Shown: in pieces, positions 1,919 to 8,702 of the stretch
Numbering within the stretch: the stretch's first letter is position 1
How the letters are laid out: every line of letters starts with the position of its first letter
NCBI GenBank assembly: GCA_965279035.1
Contig: OZ257142.1
Span: 320,001 to 384,000, forward strand
Source of the DNA: Bacteroidia bacterium
Lineage (GTDB): Bacteria; Bacteroidota; Bacteroidia; M30B66
Length of the DNA: 64,000 nucleotides
Reading direction: 5' to 3'
Program-made: the position numbers and the translations under genes
The notes under the pieces: generated by a model
Databases searched by the model: none
What the model was told of the DNA's origin: nothing
What the model saw: only the letters and a program-made list of their open reading frames with translations

Positions 1919-2914
1919 TCAAACACCCGCCTTCTCACTAAAAACAACACCTAAAAGTGTTTTTCCTACAACGCCTAATGTGGTTTTGTCAACCGCGTTC
2001 ATGTTGTCTTGCTGCGTGTGCCAGTATGCACCAAAGCCCTTTTGAAGATCGTGGTGGATGATGTCGATAGTTGGAACTCCTAAAATTGTATTCACGAAAT
2101 AATGATCATCCGTAACAGCTCCACATGGATCATTTTTGAAATAGCTCGAATAACCCAACTCTGCTCCAATGCTCCAAACTCGACTCATTACATCAGGAGC
2201 AAATTGCATAGAGAAACCTTCGCGGTAGAAAGTCGCTCCACTTGCTCCAACCATATCGAGTAAAATGCCGTATTTCGGACTAAACCCAGGAATTGGGGGA
2301 TTTGCTGAAAAATACTGTGATCCCAAACAATAGGTGTTGCTTTCGCTCGGGTTTCCATAATCTTCGGCATCAAACAACACAATATCAACACCAATAGGAG
2401 CCGGATGTGCTTGAAGAACTCGAGCAATCTCCAACAAAATACCAATACTAGCAGCACCATCAACAGCACCATCGAAACGCGCTTTGGGTTTCATTATGTC
2501 CTGATCAGAAAAAGGGCGTGTATCCCAATGTGCACATAACATGATACGCGTTGCTGCACTTGGATTTATGCGTCCAAGAATATTCCGCATGCTCAACGAT
2601 TCACCAGTGTAGGCAGTTACTTTTCCACTTTGTACCACTACTTCGGCACCATAACGCTTGAGTGTTGAAATGATGTAATCGGCACATTTTACGTGTGCTT
2701 CTGTATTTGGAACGCGCGGGCCAAAAGCCACCTGCTTTGCTGTAATGGCATAAGCTGTATCGGCATTAAATGCAGGAAGGTCGGCAGGAACTAATTTAGC
2801 CTGCTTAGGTGTTTCACTTGGAACAGGTTGATCACCGCTGGATGAAGGTCCTCCGCAAGAAGTCCAAATTCCTGCCATTAGTAGGAGACTTGCTCCCAGC
2901 CATTTATTCTTCAT
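1919..2914 (-). CDS. M28-family lipoprotein, probable glutaminyl cyclase
   Basis: Lipobox WTSC; [24 protein letters not shown] and WHT..D motifs as in Bacteroidota glutaminyl cyclases. Confidence 0.8.
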
Positions 2915-4415
2915 AATCCCAGCTAATTCCTGTTTTTGAATCTTTAATTACTAATCCTTCGAGTTTTACTTGAGCACGAATACGATCAACCGTTGCGTAA
3001 TCTTTTCGTGACTTTGCATCTACATAATCGCCCAAGATAACGTTCATCAAGGTTCCTAAAGTATCGTCCGACTTCCCTTTCTCTTCCAACAATCCAAATA
3101 TGTTCTCTACAAAATGGATGTAAGTCGATTTCATCAAGTCAAACGTATCTTGAGAAAGAGAACTCATCGCTATTTGTCCACCCTTTAGTGAATTTATCAC
3201 TTTCAACAAATCGAATAAAGAAGCCAATGCAACAGCGGTATTCATATCGTCATTCATGCCCGAATAGGCTTGTGCAACGCTAGCTTCAATACGACTTTGT
3301 AGATCATTGTCAATCGCTTCACCATCGTTGGCATTTTCCAATTGACGCAAGCTTCGCAATCCGTTGATGATTCGTTTGTATGCTTTTTCAGCTGCCTTGA
3401 GTGCATCATTCGAAAAGTCGAGTGTGCTGCGGTAATGTGCCTGAAGGATGAAAAACCGAATAGTCATGGGGCTGTATGCTTGTTCAAGCAAGGCACTTGA
3501 GCCGGTGAAGAATTCCTTCAACGTGATGAAATTCCCCAAGGACTTACCCATTTTCCGCCCATTGATGGTAATCATGTTATTGTGCATCCAGTATTTCACC
3601 GGAGCATGACCGCAACTGCCTTTAGATTGAGCAATTTCACTTTCGTGATGTGGAAAAACGAGATCCATTCCACCTCCGTGTATGTCGAACGTTTCGCCCA
3701 AATACTTACGACTCATTGCGGAACACTCGATATGCCATCCTGGAAAACCATCGCTCCAAGGAGAACTCCAACGCATAATGTGGTAAGCATCTGCTTTTTT
3801 CCAAAGGGCAAAATCTTCTGGGTTGTGCTTTTCTTCTTGTCCTTCCAGAACCCGACGATCATTCCCTGCTCCAGCAATTAAATCTTCCAAAACGCGACCA
3901 CTAAGTTTCCCGTAATCGTTGGTTTTGCTGTACTTGATCACATCAAAATACACCGAACCATTCGACTCATAAGCAAATCCGTTTTCGATGATTTTCTGAA
4001 TCATTTCAATTTGCTCCGGAATGTGGCCCGATGCACGCGGTTCAATGCTTGGGTGATTGTTATTCAACATCCGCATCGATTCGTGAAAACTGTTTGTGTA
4101 CAATTCCACTATCTCCATCGGCTCAAGCTTTTCAAGACGAGCTTTTTTGGCAATTTTATCCTCCCCTTCATCCGCATCATTTTCCAAATGTCCTACATCG
4201 GTAATGTTGCGTACGTAGCGAACTTTATAACCAATTGAGCTCAAGTAACGGCCAAGCACATCAAAAGTCACATAGGGCCGAGCATGTCCCAAATGAGCTT
4301 CCCCATAAACGGTAGGACCACACACGTACAAACCAACAAAAGGTGCATTGATGGGTTCGAACCGTTCTTTTTGCCGGTTGAGTGTGTTGTAGATAAATAG
4401 ATCCTGCGAGTTCAT
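2904..4415 (-). CDS. cysS: cysteinyl-tRNA synthetase
   Basis: [35 protein letters not shown] and KMGKS motifs. Confidence 0.98.
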
Positions 4416-4555: not shown

Positions 4556-4794
4556 TCAATAAAGATGTCTCGTAGCAAATGCTCTCACTGAGCCAGACTT
4601 CAGATAACGCTCAAATTTATAAGCCATATATCTATCAGGAAAAGTACAACACCAAATCAACTTGACTGGCAAATGAGGCTTAGTTGATCTCACATTGCCT
4701 TTAGAATGCCGGCGATAGCGTTCCTTCAAATTAATTGTACAACCTACATAATGCTTAAATTACTAAGCTCTAGGATATAAACATAAAACCACAT
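4556..4794 (-). pseudogene. small GIY-YIG nuclease (UPF0213/YazA-like), single -1 frameshift
   Basis: ATG 4794 gives MWFYVYILELSN. After a 1-nt shift near 4757 the frame reads KHYVGCTINLKERYRRHSKGNVRSTKPHLPVKLIWCCTFPDRYMAYKFERYLKSGSVRAFATRHLY* (TGA 4556-4558). It retains YVY...YVG, the conserved R and FE..LK. Total 239 nt, i.e. 80 codons minus 1 nt. Confidence 0.85.
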
Positions 4795-4820
4795 AAAGAA
4801 TAATATATCCACCAAAATAC

Positions 4821-4860
4821 AAAAACCCCAGTAAGGATTATAAATCTTTACTGGGTTTTT
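4821..4860. terminator. intrinsic terminator downstream of tRNA-Ser
   Basis: aaaaacc-ccagtaaggat-tataa-atctttactgg-gttttt: hairpin with A and T runs on either side. Confidence 0.7.
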
Positions 4861-4924
4861 GCCCACCTTCGTGGGCTTAAGCGGATGTTATCCGCCGAAG
4901 TCCGCTTCTGCGGACGAAGGCGGA
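4861..4924. repeat. cluster of GC-rich REP-like hairpins abutting the tRNA 3' end
   Basis: gcccac-cttc-gtgggc (4861-4876); gcggat-gtt-atccgc (4881-4895); tccgcc-gaa-gtccgc-ttct-gcggac-gaa-ggcgga (4891-4924). Confidence 0.75.
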
Positions 4925-5007
4925 GACTGAGGGATTCGAACCCTCGATACAGTTACCCGTATACAAACTTTCCAGGCTTGCTCCTTCAACCACTCGGACA
5001 AGTCTCC
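4921..5007 (-). tRNA. tRNA-Ser (anticodon GGA)
   Basis: Minus strand reads GGAGACTTGTCCGAGTGGTTGAAGGAGCAAGCCTGGAAAGTTTGTATACGGGTAACTGTATCGAGGGTTCGAATCCCTCAGTCTCCG. Acceptor stem GGAGACT/AGTCTCC, anticodon loop CTGGAAA, long variable arm, GTTCGAAT T-loop, G discriminator. CCA is not encoded. Confidence 0.97.
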
Positions 5008-5307
5008 AATTTACTTACTCAATCAAACTTTCCAGGCTTGCTCTCCCGATAACTATCGGGAAAACCACTCGGACAAGTCTCCAATTTACTTACTCAATCA
5101 AACTTTCCAGGCTTGCTCTCCCGATAGCTATCGGGACAACCACTCGGACAAGTCTCCTATTTACTTACTCAATCAAACTTTCCAGGCTTGCTCTCCCGAT
5201 AGCTATCGGGACAACCACTCGGACAAGTCTCCTATTTACTTACTCAATCAAACTTTCCAGGCTTGCTCTCCCGATAGCTATCGGGACAACCACTCGGACA
5301 AGTCTCC
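5008..5307 (-). repeat. 4 x 75-bp tandem array of tRNA-Ser 5'-half copies with an inserted 18-bp palindrome
   Basis: tRNA-derived 59-nt units at 5024-5082, 5099-5157, 5174-5232 and 5249-5307, separated by a 16-nt linker (a/t)atttacttactcaat. Palindrome tcccgatagctatcggga at 5044 (one mismatch), 5119, 5194 and 5269. Confidence 0.97.
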
Positions 5308-5320
5308 TATTAAAGGACGG

Positions 5321-5328
5321 CAAAACTA
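5321..5328 (-). promoter_or_regulatory. -7 promoter box (TAGTTTTG) for the array and tRNA
   Basis: Exact TAnnTTTG on the minus strand, 13 nt upstream of the first tRNA-half copy. Confidence 0.75.
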
Positions 5329-5392: not shown

Positions 5393-6433
5393 CTAATTCC
5401 AGTCGAAAAGCGTCATTTCTTCTCGAAGTGGGAGGATAAACTGCTCACGAATGCTTTCTAAATCGGGACAATTAGCTAAAAGGAACATGAGTTTGGCTAA
5501 AGCGGCTTCGGTGGTGATGTCTTGTCCGCCAAGAACGCCCATTTGAGCTAGGTCTGAGCTGGTTTTGTACTTTCCTTGAACCACCGCGCCACTGCTACAT
5601 TGGGTTACGTTTACGACCAAAATTCCCTTTTCAATTGCTTGACGGATGGCATCTAAAAACCAGTCTTCGGTTGGCGCATTTCCAGAACCAAACGTTTCTA
5701 AAACAACGGCTTTCAATCCAGGAATAGATAATATAGCCTGAACATACTGCAATGTCATTCCGGGGAATATCTTGAGAATGGCAATGTTAGTATCGAGTTT
5801 CTTGTGAAAGAGCGTAGGCTTGCCGTTGTATTTACGAAGAATAGCATCGTTGAATCGAATCTGAACTCCCGCTTCGGCCAATGCTGGATAATTGGTGCTA
5901 GCAAAAGCATTGAAGTGACTCGAACTGAACTTGGTAGTTCGATTTCCTTTAAGCAAATGATACTCGAAATAGATACATACTTCGCTTACTTTATTCATCC
6001 CGAACTCTTTGAGAACGGCAATTTCGAGTGCTGTAATGAAGTTTTCCTTTGCATCGGTACGTAGCACACCAATGGGTAGTTGCGAGCCAGTAAGAATCAC
6101 GGGCTTGCTCAAATTTTCGAGCATGAAACTCAATGCCGATGCAGTATAAGCCATGGTATCGGAACCATGTAGAATCACGAAACCATCGTAGCGGTCGTAG
6201 TTTTTTTCAATCACCTCAACCAATCGAATCCAATCGCTGGGTTGCACATTAGAGGAATCAATGGTGTTTACAAACGTGTAAATATCCAACTCAATGTCGA
6301 GCTTTTCGATTTCGGGTATGTTAGCCTGAAGTCGCTCGAAGTTCACGGGTTTAAGCGAGCCGGTTTGACTGTCTTTCACCATACCGATGGTGCCACCGGT
6401 GTATATTATTAATGCAGATGGTTTTCTGCTCAT
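5393..6433 (-). CDS. ansA: type I L-asparaginase
   Basis: IYTGGTIGM, HGSDTMAY, TGSQ and ETFGSGN motifs; no signal peptide. Confidence 0.95.
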   Translation of the reverse strand: MSRKPSALIIYTGGTIGMVKDSQTGSLKPVNFERLQANIPEIEKLDIELDIYTFVNTIDSSNVQPSDWIRLVEVIEKNYDRYDGFVILHGSDTMAYTASALSFMLENLSKPVILTGSQLPIGVLRTDAKENFITALEIAVLKEFGMNKVSEVCIYFEYHLLKGNRTTKFSSSHFNAFASTNYPALAEAGVQIRFNDAILRKYNGKPTLFHKKLDTNIAILKIFPGMTLQYVQAILSIPGLKAVVLETFGSGNAPTEDWFLDAIRQAIEKGILVVNVTQCSSGAVVQGKYKTSSDLAQMGVLGGQDITTEAALAKLMFLLANCPDLESIREQFILPLREEMTLFDWN

Positions 6434-8340: not shown

Positions 8341-8367
8341 TCGACGGAATGCTCGTCTTCCCAAAAT

Positions 8368-8409
8368 TTTCGTTAATCGTAATACGTATATCGAACATCG
8401 AATATCGAT
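8368..8409. repeat. 6 x 7-bp degenerate tandem repeat
   Basis: tttcgtt aatcgta atacgta tatcgaa catcgaa tatcgat; CG is fixed at positions 4-5 of every unit. Confidence 0.7.
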
Positions 8410-8555
8410 TCTGGGCGCCTGCTTTTTCCGCTTCACTCCAAAAGCACCGGGCTTTCCGCCTCTACTGCTTTTTCACCTTCGGTTCAAAAGAGGTAATGGC
8501 TCCAATCCCATGGCGCGGGGAATTCTGCAAAACTCGAATATCCTCAATATTTCAC

Positions 8556-8664
8556 CCTCGGACTGAAGTCCGAGGCTACAGGTCACAGATGCTATATTCG
8601 TTAGACATACACTCAAGCACATTGCTGATCTCTAACTTCTGCACCCTCGGACTTCAGTCCGAGG
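8556..8664. repeat. inverted pair of 20-bp REP-like palindromes
   Basis: cctcggac-tgaa-gtccgagg followed by ctac (8556-8579; GTAG head on the minus strand) and gcac followed by cctcggac-ttca-gtccgagg (8641-8664). The 20-mers are exact reverse complements. Confidence 0.85.
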
Positions 8665-8702
8665 TTTTGCAATCTCCCCAATCCAGAAGCTAAGGTGATC
8701 CC

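Follow-up and report, generated by a model that had tools for sequence, protein, structure and literature searches.

Organization of the locus

The DNA analysed here is a stretch of 64 kb, called the window below, from a host that is a gliding Bacteroidota bacterium. On its minus strand lie, in order, a TAGTTTTG box, four copies of a 75-nt unit, the gene for tRNA-Ser(GGA), then three GC hairpins, followed by a terminator and a GIY-YIG gene broken by a frameshift (Table 1), and every item of the one-strand series listed in the first-pass annotation (promoter box, tRNA-half copies, tRNA, hairpins, terminator and nuclease gene) was recovered where it had been placed. That annotation had also set the series between ansA and cysS, which the Pfam domains of both genes confirmed, and had seen neither integrase nor transposase; none of the 56 window ORFs scanned (of 57 ORFs of at least 70 aa in the 64 kb) belongs to a transposase or integrase family.

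Table 1. Features of the tRNA-Ser(GGA) locus, in window coordinates.
Feature	Position	Strand	Basis
cysS, downstream neighbour	2904..4415	-	Pfam tRNA-synt_1e, E 1.5e-106
GIY-YIG nuclease pseudogene (79 aa when repaired)	4556..4794	-	Frame analysis, Pfam
Intrinsic terminator, 13-bp stem and T run (4827-4855)	4820..4861	-	Stem search
Three 6-bp GC hairpins and outer stem, nested	4861..4924	-	Hairpin search, sister comparison
tRNA-Ser(GGA), intact	4919..5007	-	ARAGORN; Rfam RF00005, 56 bits, E 4e-11
Four tandem 75-nt units	5307-5233, 5232-5158, 5157-5083, 5082-5008	-	TRF, pattern counts, alignment, depth
Four palindrome (PAL) copies	5269-5286, 5194-5211, 5119-5136 (exact); 5044-5061 (one central change)	.	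Pattern search
TAGTTTTG box, putative -7 element (Bacteroidota promoter type) of the tRNA unit	5321..5328	-	Read from sequence
ansA, type I asparaginase, upstream neighbour	5393..6433	-	Pfam Asparaginase N, E 1e-60; C, E 8e-34

The tRNA-Ser(GGA) gene is the sole tRNA that ARAGORN finds in the window and forms a complete cloverleaf, its score lying well above the RF00005 gathering score of 29. Relatives were reached through 80 related AnsA loci, at 68 of which ansA is followed by a co-oriented tRNA-Ser(GGA). The two sister genomes L001 and L002, whose AnsA is 96% identical to that of the window, carry an identical block cctagttttgccgtcc at the TAGTTTTG box; this box, which we take to resemble the -7 consensus of Bacteroidetes, would serve as promoter for the tRNA transcription unit. 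In six metatranscriptome runs, 4-8% of the sampled words were present.

Behind the tRNA, the outer stem (4891-4924) of the nested hairpins overlaps the 3' end of the tRNA and pairs with it. The window holds 11 perfect 6-bp GC-rich hairpins, compared with first-order Markov shuffles that average 3.9 per 64 kb and never exceed 8; seven of the 11 fall in 4861-5285, including three within 55 nt behind the tRNA. The first stem co-varies among the window, L001 and L002 (GTCCGC/GCGGAC versus GCCCGC/GCGGGC), and the terminator is conserved in L002 and, as three tandem copies, in L001. We rejected the idea that the post-tRNA hairpins form a dispersed family, their core motif CCGCCGAAGCGG being restricted to this locus in genomes G001 (three copies) and G002 (one copy).

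The GIY-YIG gene and its orthologues

The GIY-YIG gene of the window lacks an intact frame and needs two to be read: the frame opened by the ATG at 4794 stops at 4744, and a second one takes over near 4759 and ends with the stop codon at 4556, which leaves the N-terminal 16 codons in a different frame from the remainder. The 67-aa C-terminal frame matches PF01541 (E 2.1e-9, 38 bits, cut-off 22.6), and the region of the frameshift shows no difference in the contigs of four runs. Intact orthologues exist in L002 (79 aa) and L001 (83 aa), with PF01541 matches of E 2e-12 and 2e-13 (47.7 and 50.7 bits), and the window protein is 90% identical to that of L002 over 67 columns. The frameshift reported at first reading is thus real, and the locus, then suspected of being a relic, is best read as a composite one. 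Curated homing-endonuclease models gave only sub-threshold matches to five proteins of this kind (TIGR01453, 19.6-31 bits in three of the five, cut-off 56), and PADLOC gave none above noise (no match for four, a weak HEase match with E 6e-4 for one). These nucleases of 80-100 aa have no obvious DNA-binding domain to confer sequence specificity, which counts against the explanation that we favour below.

The first-pass annotation had proposed comparing the cysS-ansA intervals of relatives; a comparison of AnsA loci revealed cassette-free sites: the nuclease gene is present at only two of the 80 AnsA loci, L001 and L002, while the tRNA persists at 68. The site is therefore polymorphic for the presence of the gene and otherwise conserved, as is expected of a free-standing homing endonuclease. 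The 5' pseudo-copy of the tRNA is rarer still, L001 alone having one among the 68 AnsA/tRNA loci; L001 shows a single decayed unit and L002 no array at all near their intact nuclease genes. No downstream repeat of the tRNA was found within 1300 nt for the cassettes of the window, L001 and L002. The window nuclease belongs to a well-supported clade of 17 rows (clade W), and the other 16 have no palindrome of this type nearby.

The tRNA-fragment array

Tandem Repeats Finder (TRF) delimits the array at 4987-5311 with a period of 75, 4.3 copies, 98% matches and a score of 622. By alignment, each unit consists of nt 1-23 of tRNA-Ser, an 18-nt palindrome, tRNA nt ~27-45 reaching through the anticodon stem, and a 16-nt spacer. 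The palindrome (TCCCGATAGCTATCGGGA, perfect over its 18 nt and called PAL below) takes the place of the D-loop AAG in each unit. Five matches to the initial 20 nt of the tRNA were counted, all on the minus strand and in steps of 75 nt, against 0 expected from 100 shuffles, and PAL occurs four times (three exact, one with one mismatch), again against 0 expected. A single unit folds at -24.8 kcal/mol (z = -3.4 versus shuffles); none of the four units matches Rfam, which has no family for such a unit. A CRISPR array was rejected on the ground that the 57 nt between palindromes are identical or nearly so, and not unique spacers.

The copy number could be followed in contigs of four public runs, from two samples of one study and possibly the source data of the window itself. 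These contigs do not differ from the window flanks and break inside the array, and the repeat unitigs have about 3x and about 2x the depth of the flanks, the ratios predicted for three identical units and one variant; the array therefore has four units. Local replication slippage or misassembly in an ordinary tRNA leader would be in keeping with the 98% identity of the units, with the breaks in the short-read contigs and with the lack of the array in sister genomes. Such an account is nevertheless already contradicted as a full explanation, and we give it almost no credence: the depth ratios match four units, slippage covers the step from one copy to four but not the origin of the unit, and PAL recurs at the same D-loop position in many other tRNA genes, genomes and metagenomes, as described in the following section.

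Distribution of the palindrome

PAL was found in 24 of 301 sampled Bacteroidota genomes, with 1-42 copies each and none for the reversed control, and in at least 126 metagenome stretches and 52 viral-contig stretches. It is thus a dispersed, multi-copy palindrome of patchy distribution, as REP sequences are. In other genomes and in metagenomes it occupies the same D-loop position at tRNA genes for Ser, Ala, Met, Trp, Leu, Phe, Val and Arg, and more generally it recurs at D-, anticodon- or T-loop positions of redundant copies of tRNAs and tmRNA; it also lies in a tRNA-like sequence upstream of a tRNA-Lys. At three loci (L171, L273, L253), dense tRNA clusters contain tRNA-like genes of full length whose D or T loop carries PAL. 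In an unselected survey of 86 tRNAs from three genomes, each true 5' pseudo-copy contained a PAL-type hairpin. The 5' copies begin at tRNA position +1 (+-2), a start point that the mechanism proposed below leaves unexplained and that speaks against it.

Its many native contexts exclude that PAL is a contaminant or vector sequence. At only 6 of 207 unique sites does the palindrome extend by at least 4 nt, and the proposition that PAL always tips a longer palindrome was consequently rejected. The PAL string had no match in searchable papers, subscription journals and supplements being outside this coverage. A second palindrome, HP2 (CCTGCCTGCCGGCAWAGGCAGG-like), is present in 5-9 copies in three of five genomes (control 0), and both PAL and HP2 are also seen away from tRNA sites, among short tandem repeats and at the tips of other hairpins.

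GIY-YIG genes behind tRNAs

The first-pass annotation had suggested searching the surroundings of nuclease homologues for tRNA genes and palindromes, and this search gave support to the association. At 22 of the 37 evaluable loci of the phylum sample (L423, L428 and L434, with less than 100 nt of upstream sequence, were left out), a small GIY-YIG gene follows a co-oriented tRNA, which is Leu or Ser in 18 of the 22; within the taxonomic order of the window the gene trails a tRNA at 10 of 16 loci (9 of them independent). The 3' end of the same tRNA is repeated 283-580 nt downstream in 14 of the 22, and in eight phylum loci examined a second tRNA copy, often plugged by a palindrome, directly follows the nuclease ORF. 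In the tandem arrays L416 and L432 the repeated unit comprises the 3' part of the tRNA, the terminator, the nuclease gene, a partial tRNA and the palindrome. Loop palindromes recur as well: HP2 sits at the junction of T stem and T loop or in the D loop at 10 of 40 phylum loci, and PAL or variants with compensated stems (CTCC..GGAG, TTCC..GGAA, CCCC..GGGG) lie in the spare copy's loops at L223, L208, L220 and L486, at L491 (a tmRNA) and at L493 and L494 (both from the window's own order). The layout of the window, with plugged 5' copies followed by the tRNA and the nuclease gene, is found at L486, L223, L411, L427, L419 and L111; at no fewer than 10 loci, plugged copies come after the nuclease gene and not before it.

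The repeated 3' ends recall integration sites, and the partial tRNA copies could be att-site scars of integrase-borne islands whose left-over cargo is the nuclease. Direct repeats of the tRNA 3' end do bracket the cassette, and 9 of the 86 surveyed tRNAs have downstream tandem repeats of 3' end and terminator with no nuclease gene. Yet the 64 kb of the window hold no integrase, units of 75-400 bp are far below the size of any island, a palindrome insertion is not a product of integrase crossover, 5' copies lie upstream of the gene, and identical palindromes appear across different tRNA species and tmRNA; we consider this origin highly improbable.

The recurrence of one layout could also mean that the array serves the nuclease as a functional RNA partner, whether inhibitor, guide or decoy, in the manner of a type III toxin-antitoxin system. 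Promoter, repeats, (tRNA), terminator and nuclease do follow one another in the window, L486, L223 and L111, the unit folds better than its shuffles, and the stem changes of PAL variants are compensated. Against a partnership, L002 keeps an intact orthologue without any repeats, the plugged tRNA copy comes after the nuclease gene at most loci, and arrays stand at tRNA genes that have no nuclease gene nearby (PAL-bearing fragments at Ala, Met, Trp and Ser genes, five PAL/tRNA loci). Moreover, PF01541 is a DNA-nuclease fold, no PADLOC model rises above noise and the unit is foreign to Rfam. We hold such a partnership to be very unlikely.

Pairing of palindromes with nuclease clades

The type of palindrome follows the clade of the nuclease, HP2 going with one clade (clade H) and PAL with another (clade P), which agrees with the prediction of a nuclease/hairpin pairing like that of RAYT and REP. 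On the nuclease tree, HP2 rows require 2 changes, a value as low occurring in 0 of 500 shuffles (mean 12-13), and PAL rows require 4, with 1 of 500 shuffles as low (mean 7.7), and a strong clade-P match, present in 13 of 301 genomes, goes with PAL in 8 of these 13 versus 16 of the 288 others (odds ratio 27, p = 4.8e-7), tree and genome tests both being inflated by relatedness and 4 of the 5 clade-P rows having come through PAL-selected loci. The two are also adjacent at base level in G112, where PAL lies 18 nt after a clade-P gene, in G172, where it lies 1 nt before each of three gene fragments, in G280, G072 and G006, and at metagenome loci. PAL-selected loci contained a small nuclease ORF in 5 of 178 cases (307 kb) versus 0 of 78 control loci (894 kb). 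The pairing is incomplete: exact PAL is absent from 5 of the 13 genomes with a strong clade-P match, and within the window's order such a match was found in 2 of 11 PAL-positive genomes, all of them incomplete MAGs. A genome-level co-occurrence of PAL with the window-type nuclease was rejected (14 of 24 versus 110 of 277, p = 0.09); the L002 query used there was too narrow, since five tested query-negative PAL-positive genomes hold other small GIY-YIG ORFs.

PAL and HP2 might instead be self-standing miniature palindromes, spread by an unrelated host or phage function or by recombination, and linked to the nuclease only indirectly through dispensable DNA beside tRNA genes. The nuclease ORF is absent at 173 of the 178 PAL-selected metagenome and viral loci, which also weighs against our preferred explanation; in the window's order no nuclease gene was found near PAL at any of 47 PAL loci; and a tailed-phage contig with Mu-like head genes carries six PAL copies in intergenic spacers over 11 kb and no nuclease in the 11 ORFs scanned. 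The PAL-rich MAGs G008 and G003 give no clade-P match, and the sites away from tRNAs point the same way. Y1_Tnp genes are in excess among PAL-positive genomes (22 of 24 versus 198 of 277 others, p = 0.03), a weak excess because the family occurs in 73% of genomes. On the other side, each of the 14 Y1_Tnp loci inspected across five genomes has other hairpins of its own at its flanks and PAL flanks none of them, the single PAL of G001 being 1.36 kb away, and a RAYT was accordingly rejected as the mobiliser of PAL; longer perfect palindromes are confined to the few PAL sites counted above; and clade-specific pairing in two independent pairs, the odds ratio for clade P and the base-level adjacencies all tie the palindromes to nucleases. 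We regard independent spread as unlikely.

Proposed origin of the locus

We favour, with a probability of roughly 0.6, the view that the locus is a tRNA-Ser(GGA) gene bearing the remains of two elements of Bacteroidota parasitic on tRNA genes, each of which would combine a short palindrome with its cognate nuclease, a free-standing GIY-YIG protein of 80-100 aa. The first remnant would be the clade-W nuclease cassette beyond the tRNA terminator, a genus-specific insertion broken here by the frameshift. The second would be the four 75-bp units between promoter and tRNA, that is, a redundant 5' tRNA copy whose D loop is plugged by PAL. A complete clade-P element comprises the tRNA, its terminator, the nuclease gene and then the same tRNA once more, now with PAL-type hairpins in the D, anticodon or T loop, often with a PAL-plugged 5' fragment upstream as well. 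The units of the window may be cargo-less derivatives of such a fragment, whose number later rose from one to four through unequal recombination or slippage during replication. The nuclease may nick or cut the DNA encoding the loop, or the hairpin itself, leading to target duplication and insertion of the palindrome; insertions would be lethal to a working tRNA and persist only in redundant copies. The array would be transcribed within the tRNA leader and removed during 5' processing, presumably without any role for the host. The causal direction, from nuclease to palindrome, is one that we infer from co-occurrence of their sequences.

The idea that the nuclease mobilises the palindromes, put forward in the first-pass annotation, thus survives in kind, through the tRNA-trailing genes, the duplicated tRNAs, the loop palindromes and the pairing with clades; it lacks support for this particular pair, the other members of clade W having no such palindrome nearby, L002 no array and L001 only a decayed unit, and PAL going with clade P. 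As far as these comparisons go, the window's own nuclease is probably not the mobiliser of this array. More broadly, and at slightly less than even odds, small GIY-YIG genes with 18-22-nt palindromes may be an unrecognised minimal class of mobile elements in Bacteroidota and their phages, a GIY-YIG counterpart of RAYT/REP. Their nuclease would act on the DNA of hairpin loops in tRNA and tmRNA genes, duplicate the target, thus sparing the gene, and plug the loops of the spare copy with the palindrome, solo palindromes and tRNA-fragment arrays being the non-autonomous progeny.

Should the pairing prove causal, few known self-propagating DNA systems would be as small as this one, made of some 80 residues of protein and an 18-nt hairpin, and a GIY-YIG domain would for the first time hold the role that HUH enzymes have for REP elements. 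It would also explain the tiny genes annotated as "GIY-YIG nuclease family" behind Bacteroidota tRNA genes, as well as tRNA fragments in tRNA leaders and trailers and the assembly breaks there. tRNA and tmRNA genes would be open to colonisation without integrases, and a nuclease whose target is short, structured and defined would be of practical interest. For annotation, copies plugged by PAL or HP2 are pseudo-tRNAs, yet ARAGORN may report them, as at L414.

Comparison with known systems

No description of such a nuclease-plus-hairpin element was found in the searchable literature, the paper on SegB being the sole relevant match. SegB is about twice as long as the proteins studied here and has a DNA-binding part, whereas ours, at 79-100 aa, consist of the catalytic domain only. 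As far as the accessible part of its description goes, SegB of phage T6 is a GIY-YIG homing endonuclease located by tRNA genes that drives tandem amplification of tRNA segments (PMC13096335). The likeness lies in a GIY-YIG gene that adjoins tRNA genes and that some close relatives have and others lack, and in an amplified segment made of tRNA and nuclease gene, in which the 5' end of the tRNA shares microhomology with the 3' end of the gene (PMC13096335). Redundant tRNAs plugged by palindromes and dispersed solo palindromes, both seen here, do not figure in that part of the account (PMC13096335). Unlike T-even SegB, the genes described here are chromosomal in Bacteroidota and not phage-borne.

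In the REP/REPIN and RAYT system (Y1 HUH), multi-copy palindromes go with the gene of a small single-domain nuclease. Common to both systems are palindromes that differ from one enzyme clade to another, and genomes in which solo palindromes are many and enzyme genes one or few. Genes of RAYT type with flanking hairpins of their own are seen in these same Bacteroidota, and none of the 14 Y1_Tnp genes has PAL at its flanks. The present fold is GIY-YIG and not HUH, the copy number is in the tens and not the hundreds, and the palindromes are within loops of duplicated tRNA and tmRNA genes.

Islands mobilised by tyrosine integrases restore the tRNA gene upon insertion and leave a partial duplicate at the far junction, and the elements described here share both properties. 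They differ in having no integrase, in their size of 75-400 bp, in the palindrome at the junction inside the duplicate and in the existence of both 5' and 3' variants. Type III toxin-antitoxin systems (ToxIN) are laid out as a promoter, tandem short repeats, a terminator and a small nuclease gene, as is the window locus; here the nuclease fold differs, the repeats are tRNA fragments, a tRNA gene separates repeats and terminator, the intact gene of L002 has no repeats, and the repeats, which in ToxIN precede the toxin, are often on the opposite side of the gene. Finally, the mobile GC clusters of organelles and the palindromic elements of Rickettsia are short palindromes that spread into structural RNA or protein genes, and we know of no nuclease dedicated to either. 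The palindromes studied here belong to other taxa and have other sequences, and their insertions are confined to redundant gene copies.

Organization of the locus in the window

The first-pass annotation described a box, four tRNA-half units, tRNA-Ser, hairpins, a terminator and a frameshifted GIY-YIG gene in this order between ansA and cysS; all are present in that interval, on the minus strand.

Features of the ansA-cysS interval and its neighbours, in window coordinates
Feature	Position	Strand	Remark
ansA	6433..5393	minus	upstream neighbour
Box TAGTTTTG	5328..5321	minus	
Tandem 75-nt units, n=4	5307..5008	minus	
tRNA-Ser(GGA)	5007..4919	minus	sole tRNA in 64 kb
Perfect 6-bp GC hairpins, n=3, and an outer stem pairing with the last bases of the tRNA		minus	after the tRNA
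Terminator		minus	between the GC hairpins and the GIY-YIG gene
GIY-YIG gene		minus	after the terminator; first 16 codons out of frame with the other 67
cysS	4415..2904	minus	downstream neighbour

TRF describes the array as 4.3 copies of period 75 with 98% matches, and the first 20 nt of the tRNA occur five times (0 expected). Each unit opens with tRNA nucleotides 1-23, followed by the palindrome PAL, then tRNA sequence through the whole anticodon stem, and lastly a spacer of 16 nt; PAL (TCCCGATAGCTATCGGGA) is an 18-nt perfect palindrome substituting for the D-loop AAG. In contigs of four public runs, possibly the window's own source and so not fully independent support, both flanks including the frameshift region showed 0 differences, and the repeat unitigs had about 3x and 2x the flank depth, as predicted for four units (three identical, one variant). 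The 425-nt stretch of the locus holds 7 of the window's 11 perfect GC-rich 6-bp hairpins. Elsewhere, an unassigned 114-aa ORF at 8349-8690 contains a pair of perfect hairpins (8558-8573 and 8647-8662), 89 nt apart, that share the stem TCGGAC/GTCCGA and have complementary loops.

The annotated lack of an integrase or transposase was borne out among the 56 window ORFs scanned. Outside this locus the window is ordinary chromosomal DNA, and its gldB, C, L, M, N genes and T9SS parts are those of a gliding Bacteroidota. Partial tRNA copies might be read as integrase scars, but no integrase was found among the scanned ORFs and a palindrome sits at the junction.

Comparison with close relatives

The first-pass annotation had proposed comparing ansA-cysS intervals for an empty site. 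Among 80 loci gathered via AnsA, ansA followed by tRNA-Ser(GGA) was kept in 68, and the nuclease gene was found at this site only in the nearest two, the sister loci L001 and L002 (96% AnsA identity), whose orthologues are intact (83 and 79 aa, respectively). L002 has no array, its tRNA beginning 26 nt past the box. L001, alone among the 68 loci in having a 5' pseudo-copy, retains a single decayed unit in which both the hairpin and the tRNA-like flanks have diverged. In L001 (7290-7650), the hairpin/terminator module between tRNA and nuclease gene is present three times in tandem (unit of about 125 nt), versus once in the window. The contig of a more distant genome (AnsA 79% identical) stops within a unit bearing the identical palindrome, with flanks matching that genome's own tRNA variant. 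From these comparisons, the nuclease cassette is a genus-level insertion, and the 75-nt unit predates the genus, having decayed in some lines and been amplified and homogenised in the window.

Slippage alone would account for the step from one copy to four and for nothing else. The proposal that the array is an RNA partner of the nuclease, in the manner of type III TA, is contradicted by L002, where an intact gene stands without array, and by the plugged copies situated 3' of the gene at other loci.

PAL as a dispersed element

Within the window's GTDB order, exact PAL was found in 11 of 24 genomes, with at most 14 copies per genome; across the phylum it is present in 24 of 301 sampled genomes, with a maximum of 42, and the reversed pattern is absent from all 301. 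It also occurs in at least 126 metagenome stretches and 52 viral-contig stretches, including a contig with Mu-like head and terminase genes that carries 6 copies in intergenic spacers over 11 kb; numerous genomic copies lie 180-250 nt from contig ends.

The contexts are of two kinds, tRNA-linked and other intergenic. In the first, a tRNA 5' copy begins at +1 (±2), 3-9 nt of its D loop are swapped for PAL, and homology stops variably (nt 26-52) before a 16-41-nt AT-rich spacer and the real tRNA. Such copies occur at Ser-GGA, Ala-GGC, Ala-TGC (rRNA spacer), Met, Trp, Leu-GAG, Leu-TAA, Phe, Val and Arg genes, with arrays of 2 to at least 3 units at Ala, Leu and one further tRNA; one metagenome contig (L222) has a PAL-plugged tRNA-Ala(TGC) 5' fragment in the 16S-23S rRNA spacer, immediately 5' of the real spacer tRNA. 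At three loci (L171, L273, L253), dense tRNA clusters include full-length tRNA-like genes whose D or T loop carries PAL. An unselected survey of 86 tRNAs in three genomes showed a PAL-type hairpin in every true 5' pseudo-copy (two Ala, one Met, two Trp and three Ser copies, two of the last being decayed). In the same survey, 9 tRNAs had downstream tandem repeats of the last 15-20 nt plus terminator region (units of about 110-165 nt, up to 3 copies), with no nuclease gene or palindrome noted within the repeat regions; examples are tRNA-Cys (L345 in G008, L394 in G020), tRNA-Arg-CCG (L373 in G019) and tRNA-Ser-GGA (L375, L138, L101).

Intergenic sites without tRNA often lie amid short tandem repeats or beside duplicated half-palindromes. 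Flank duplication across PAL was found at 28 of 177 sites; a control probe placed 60 nt off gave 9 of 177. Only 6 of 207 sites have PAL within a longer perfect palindrome. At L152 (G003:C191), two PAL copies bound a segment of about 165 nt whose inverted ends are of the ATCAGCACATC type, and the corresponding site in G008 (L141, G008:C103) has a single PAL only; L149 (G006:C335) was also compared, and in this genus PAL is mostly within (CAGCACATC)n-like repeats.

RAYT was considered as the mobiliser of PAL and rejected, each of 14 Y1_Tnp genes having its own, different hairpins. These RAYT-like genes (L459-L472; G001, G068, G080, G112, G008) are each flanked by several copies of a hairpin of 17-22 nt; the G001 gene, for one, is surrounded by six copies of TTGCCCC-NNN-GGGGCAA. 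These Bacteroidota Y1_Tnp loci are REP/RAYT systems distinct from PAL.

Small GIY-YIG genes as tRNA-linked cassettes

A co-oriented tRNA lies directly 5' of the small GIY-YIG ORF in 10 of 16 loci (9 independent) in the window's order. A search with the L002 protein matched 124 of 301 phylum genomes. The genes often stand in tandem as near-identical copies, one genome having at least 9; arrays of 5 to at least 9 genes spaced 300-380 nt apart were seen at G102:C2:365347-368236, G070:C19:516155-517907 and G144:C34:6982-9769. Taking the best match per genome in 40 genomes, 37 loci were evaluable (L423, L428 and L434 were short of upstream sequence), and 22 had a co-oriented tRNA within 300 nt 5' of the gene (10 Leu, 8 Ser, 4 others); the other 15 comprise 2 with such a tRNA 450-610 nt upstream, 3 with a tRNA just downstream and 10 with none.

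The last 15 nt of the upstream tRNA are repeated 283-580 nt onward in 14 of these 22 loci. The repeat lies immediately 3' of the ORF in the 8 phylum loci examined and follows each gene copy in tandem arrays, and the second tRNA copy extends from the variable arm onward up to full length. At 10 of 40 loci (Leu-GAG, -CAA, -CAG, -TAA and Arg-ACG genes), the D loop or the T-stem/T-loop junction of this copy is occupied by a second, conserved palindrome type, HP2 (CCTGCCTGCCGGCAWAGGCAGG-like). HP2 is likewise a dispersed element: 3 of 5 genomes carry 5-9 copies, against 0 for the control, and 8 of 12 HP2 loci fetched were without tRNA.

Other arrangements were encountered. At L414 (G244:C1, about 5881780-5882440), four tRNA-Leu(CAA) calls, in tandem and spaced 192 nt apart, come after a GIY-YIG gene; three of them have HP2 at the D-loop position, and ARAGORN calls these tRNAs regardless. 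At L111 (G022:C18), two tandem 111-nt near-full-length tRNA-Asp pseudo-copies, with part of the anticodon/variable region swapped for a third palindrome type (TCCCTACTG-N-CAGAGTAGGGA), precede the real tRNA-Asp and a small GIY-YIG gene. At L480 (2295-2372; G268:C9), a Flavo-1 RNA (Rfam 78.8 bits) lies about 500 nt 3' of a small GIY-YIG ORF.

Pairing of palindromes with nuclease clades

With a profile built in the analysis, a small nuclease ORF was found in 5 of 178 PAL-selected loci (307 kb) versus 0 of 78 control loci (894 kb). L486 (G072) has two PAL units, tRNA-Leu-TAA, the nuclease and then a copy with its anticodon arm swapped for a PAL-stem hairpin; L223 has a PAL fragment, tRNA-Leu-GAG, the nuclease, a complete second copy whose D and T loops both contain PAL variants, and a decayed second nuclease. 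PAL-plugged copies flank the small GIY-YIG genes of L208 (tRNA-Asn) and L220 (tRNA-Phe), while L491 has a PAL-plugged tmRNA 5' fragment, the nuclease and the real tmRNA (Rfam 109.7 bits). A second PAL-like palindrome, TCCCGATAGCCATCGGGA, lies within the body of this otherwise full-scoring tmRNA gene (2034-2051; G280:C9). In the window's own order, L493 (G006) has tRNA-Leu-CAA, the nuclease and a second copy plugged in D and T loops, and L494 (G024) has a similar layout at tRNA-Asn. Among PAL variants at nuclease loci, both stem arms change together (CTCC..GGAG, TTCC..GGAA, CCCC..GGGG).

In protein trees, uncorrected for relatedness, HP2-linked rows fall in two clades with 2 changes (shuffled mean 12-13; 0 of 500 shuffles as low), and all 8 PAL rows require 4 changes (7.7 shuffled; 1 of 500 as low). 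Five PAL-linked rows, four of them originating from PAL-selected loci, together form clade P, with a common C-terminal HIKKMKSRKYI..LKKYP-like motif. At E <= 1e-12 a clade-P query matched 13 of 301 genomes, 8 of which carry PAL versus 16 of the 288 others (odds ratio 27, p = 4.8e-7, relatedness uncorrected); relaxing the cut-off to E <= 1e-6 gives 12 of 48 versus 12 of 253 (p = 4.6e-5, likewise uncorrected). PAL lies 18 nt 3' of the clade-P gene in G112 and 1 nt 5' of each of three gene fragments in G172. Exact PAL is absent from 5 of the 13 genomes with a strong match, and in the window's order only 2 of 11 PAL-positive genomes have one. We consider it unlikely that the palindromes are independent of the GIY-YIG genes.

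The window and L002 nucleases belong to a third, well-supported clade of 17 rows, clade W, and none of the other 16 rows has a PAL/HP2-type palindrome within 750 nt. The first-pass idea that the nuclease mobilises the palindromes thus gains from the clade pairing and adjacency elsewhere but probably does not carry over to the window's own nuclease.

Proposed mechanism and relation to known systems

In the recurrent unit, a tRNA or tmRNA gene is joined by a very small GIY-YIG gene and by an extra target copy whose loops carry a clade-matched palindrome; solo dispersed palindromes and cargo-less plugged fragments go with it. We take the window to hold two layers: a clade-W cassette 3' of the tRNA, now frameshifted, and a cargo-less clade-P-type plugged 5' fragment in the tRNA leader that has been amplified to four copies. 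We infer that the nuclease causes target duplication and loop plugging. In favour are the palindrome-clade pairing, the adjacency, the confinement of plugs to spare copies and a published case, the GIY-YIG homing endonuclease SegB, which is located next to phage tRNA genes and drives tandem amplification of a tRNA-containing segment (PMC13096335). The plugs could confer immunity to cutting, shorten cassette-deleting homology or mark the insertion junction itself.

Neither the palindrome nor small GIY-YIG genes with plugged tRNA copies in Bacteroidota were found described in the searchable literature (subscription journals and supplements being outside its scope), and NCBIfam and PADLOC gave only sub-threshold homing-endonuclease matches. 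The bolder reading, a new class of nuclease/hairpin element, we place slightly below even odds. We file the system with the free-standing GIY-YIG mobile genes, as a form of them that has a REP-like twist.
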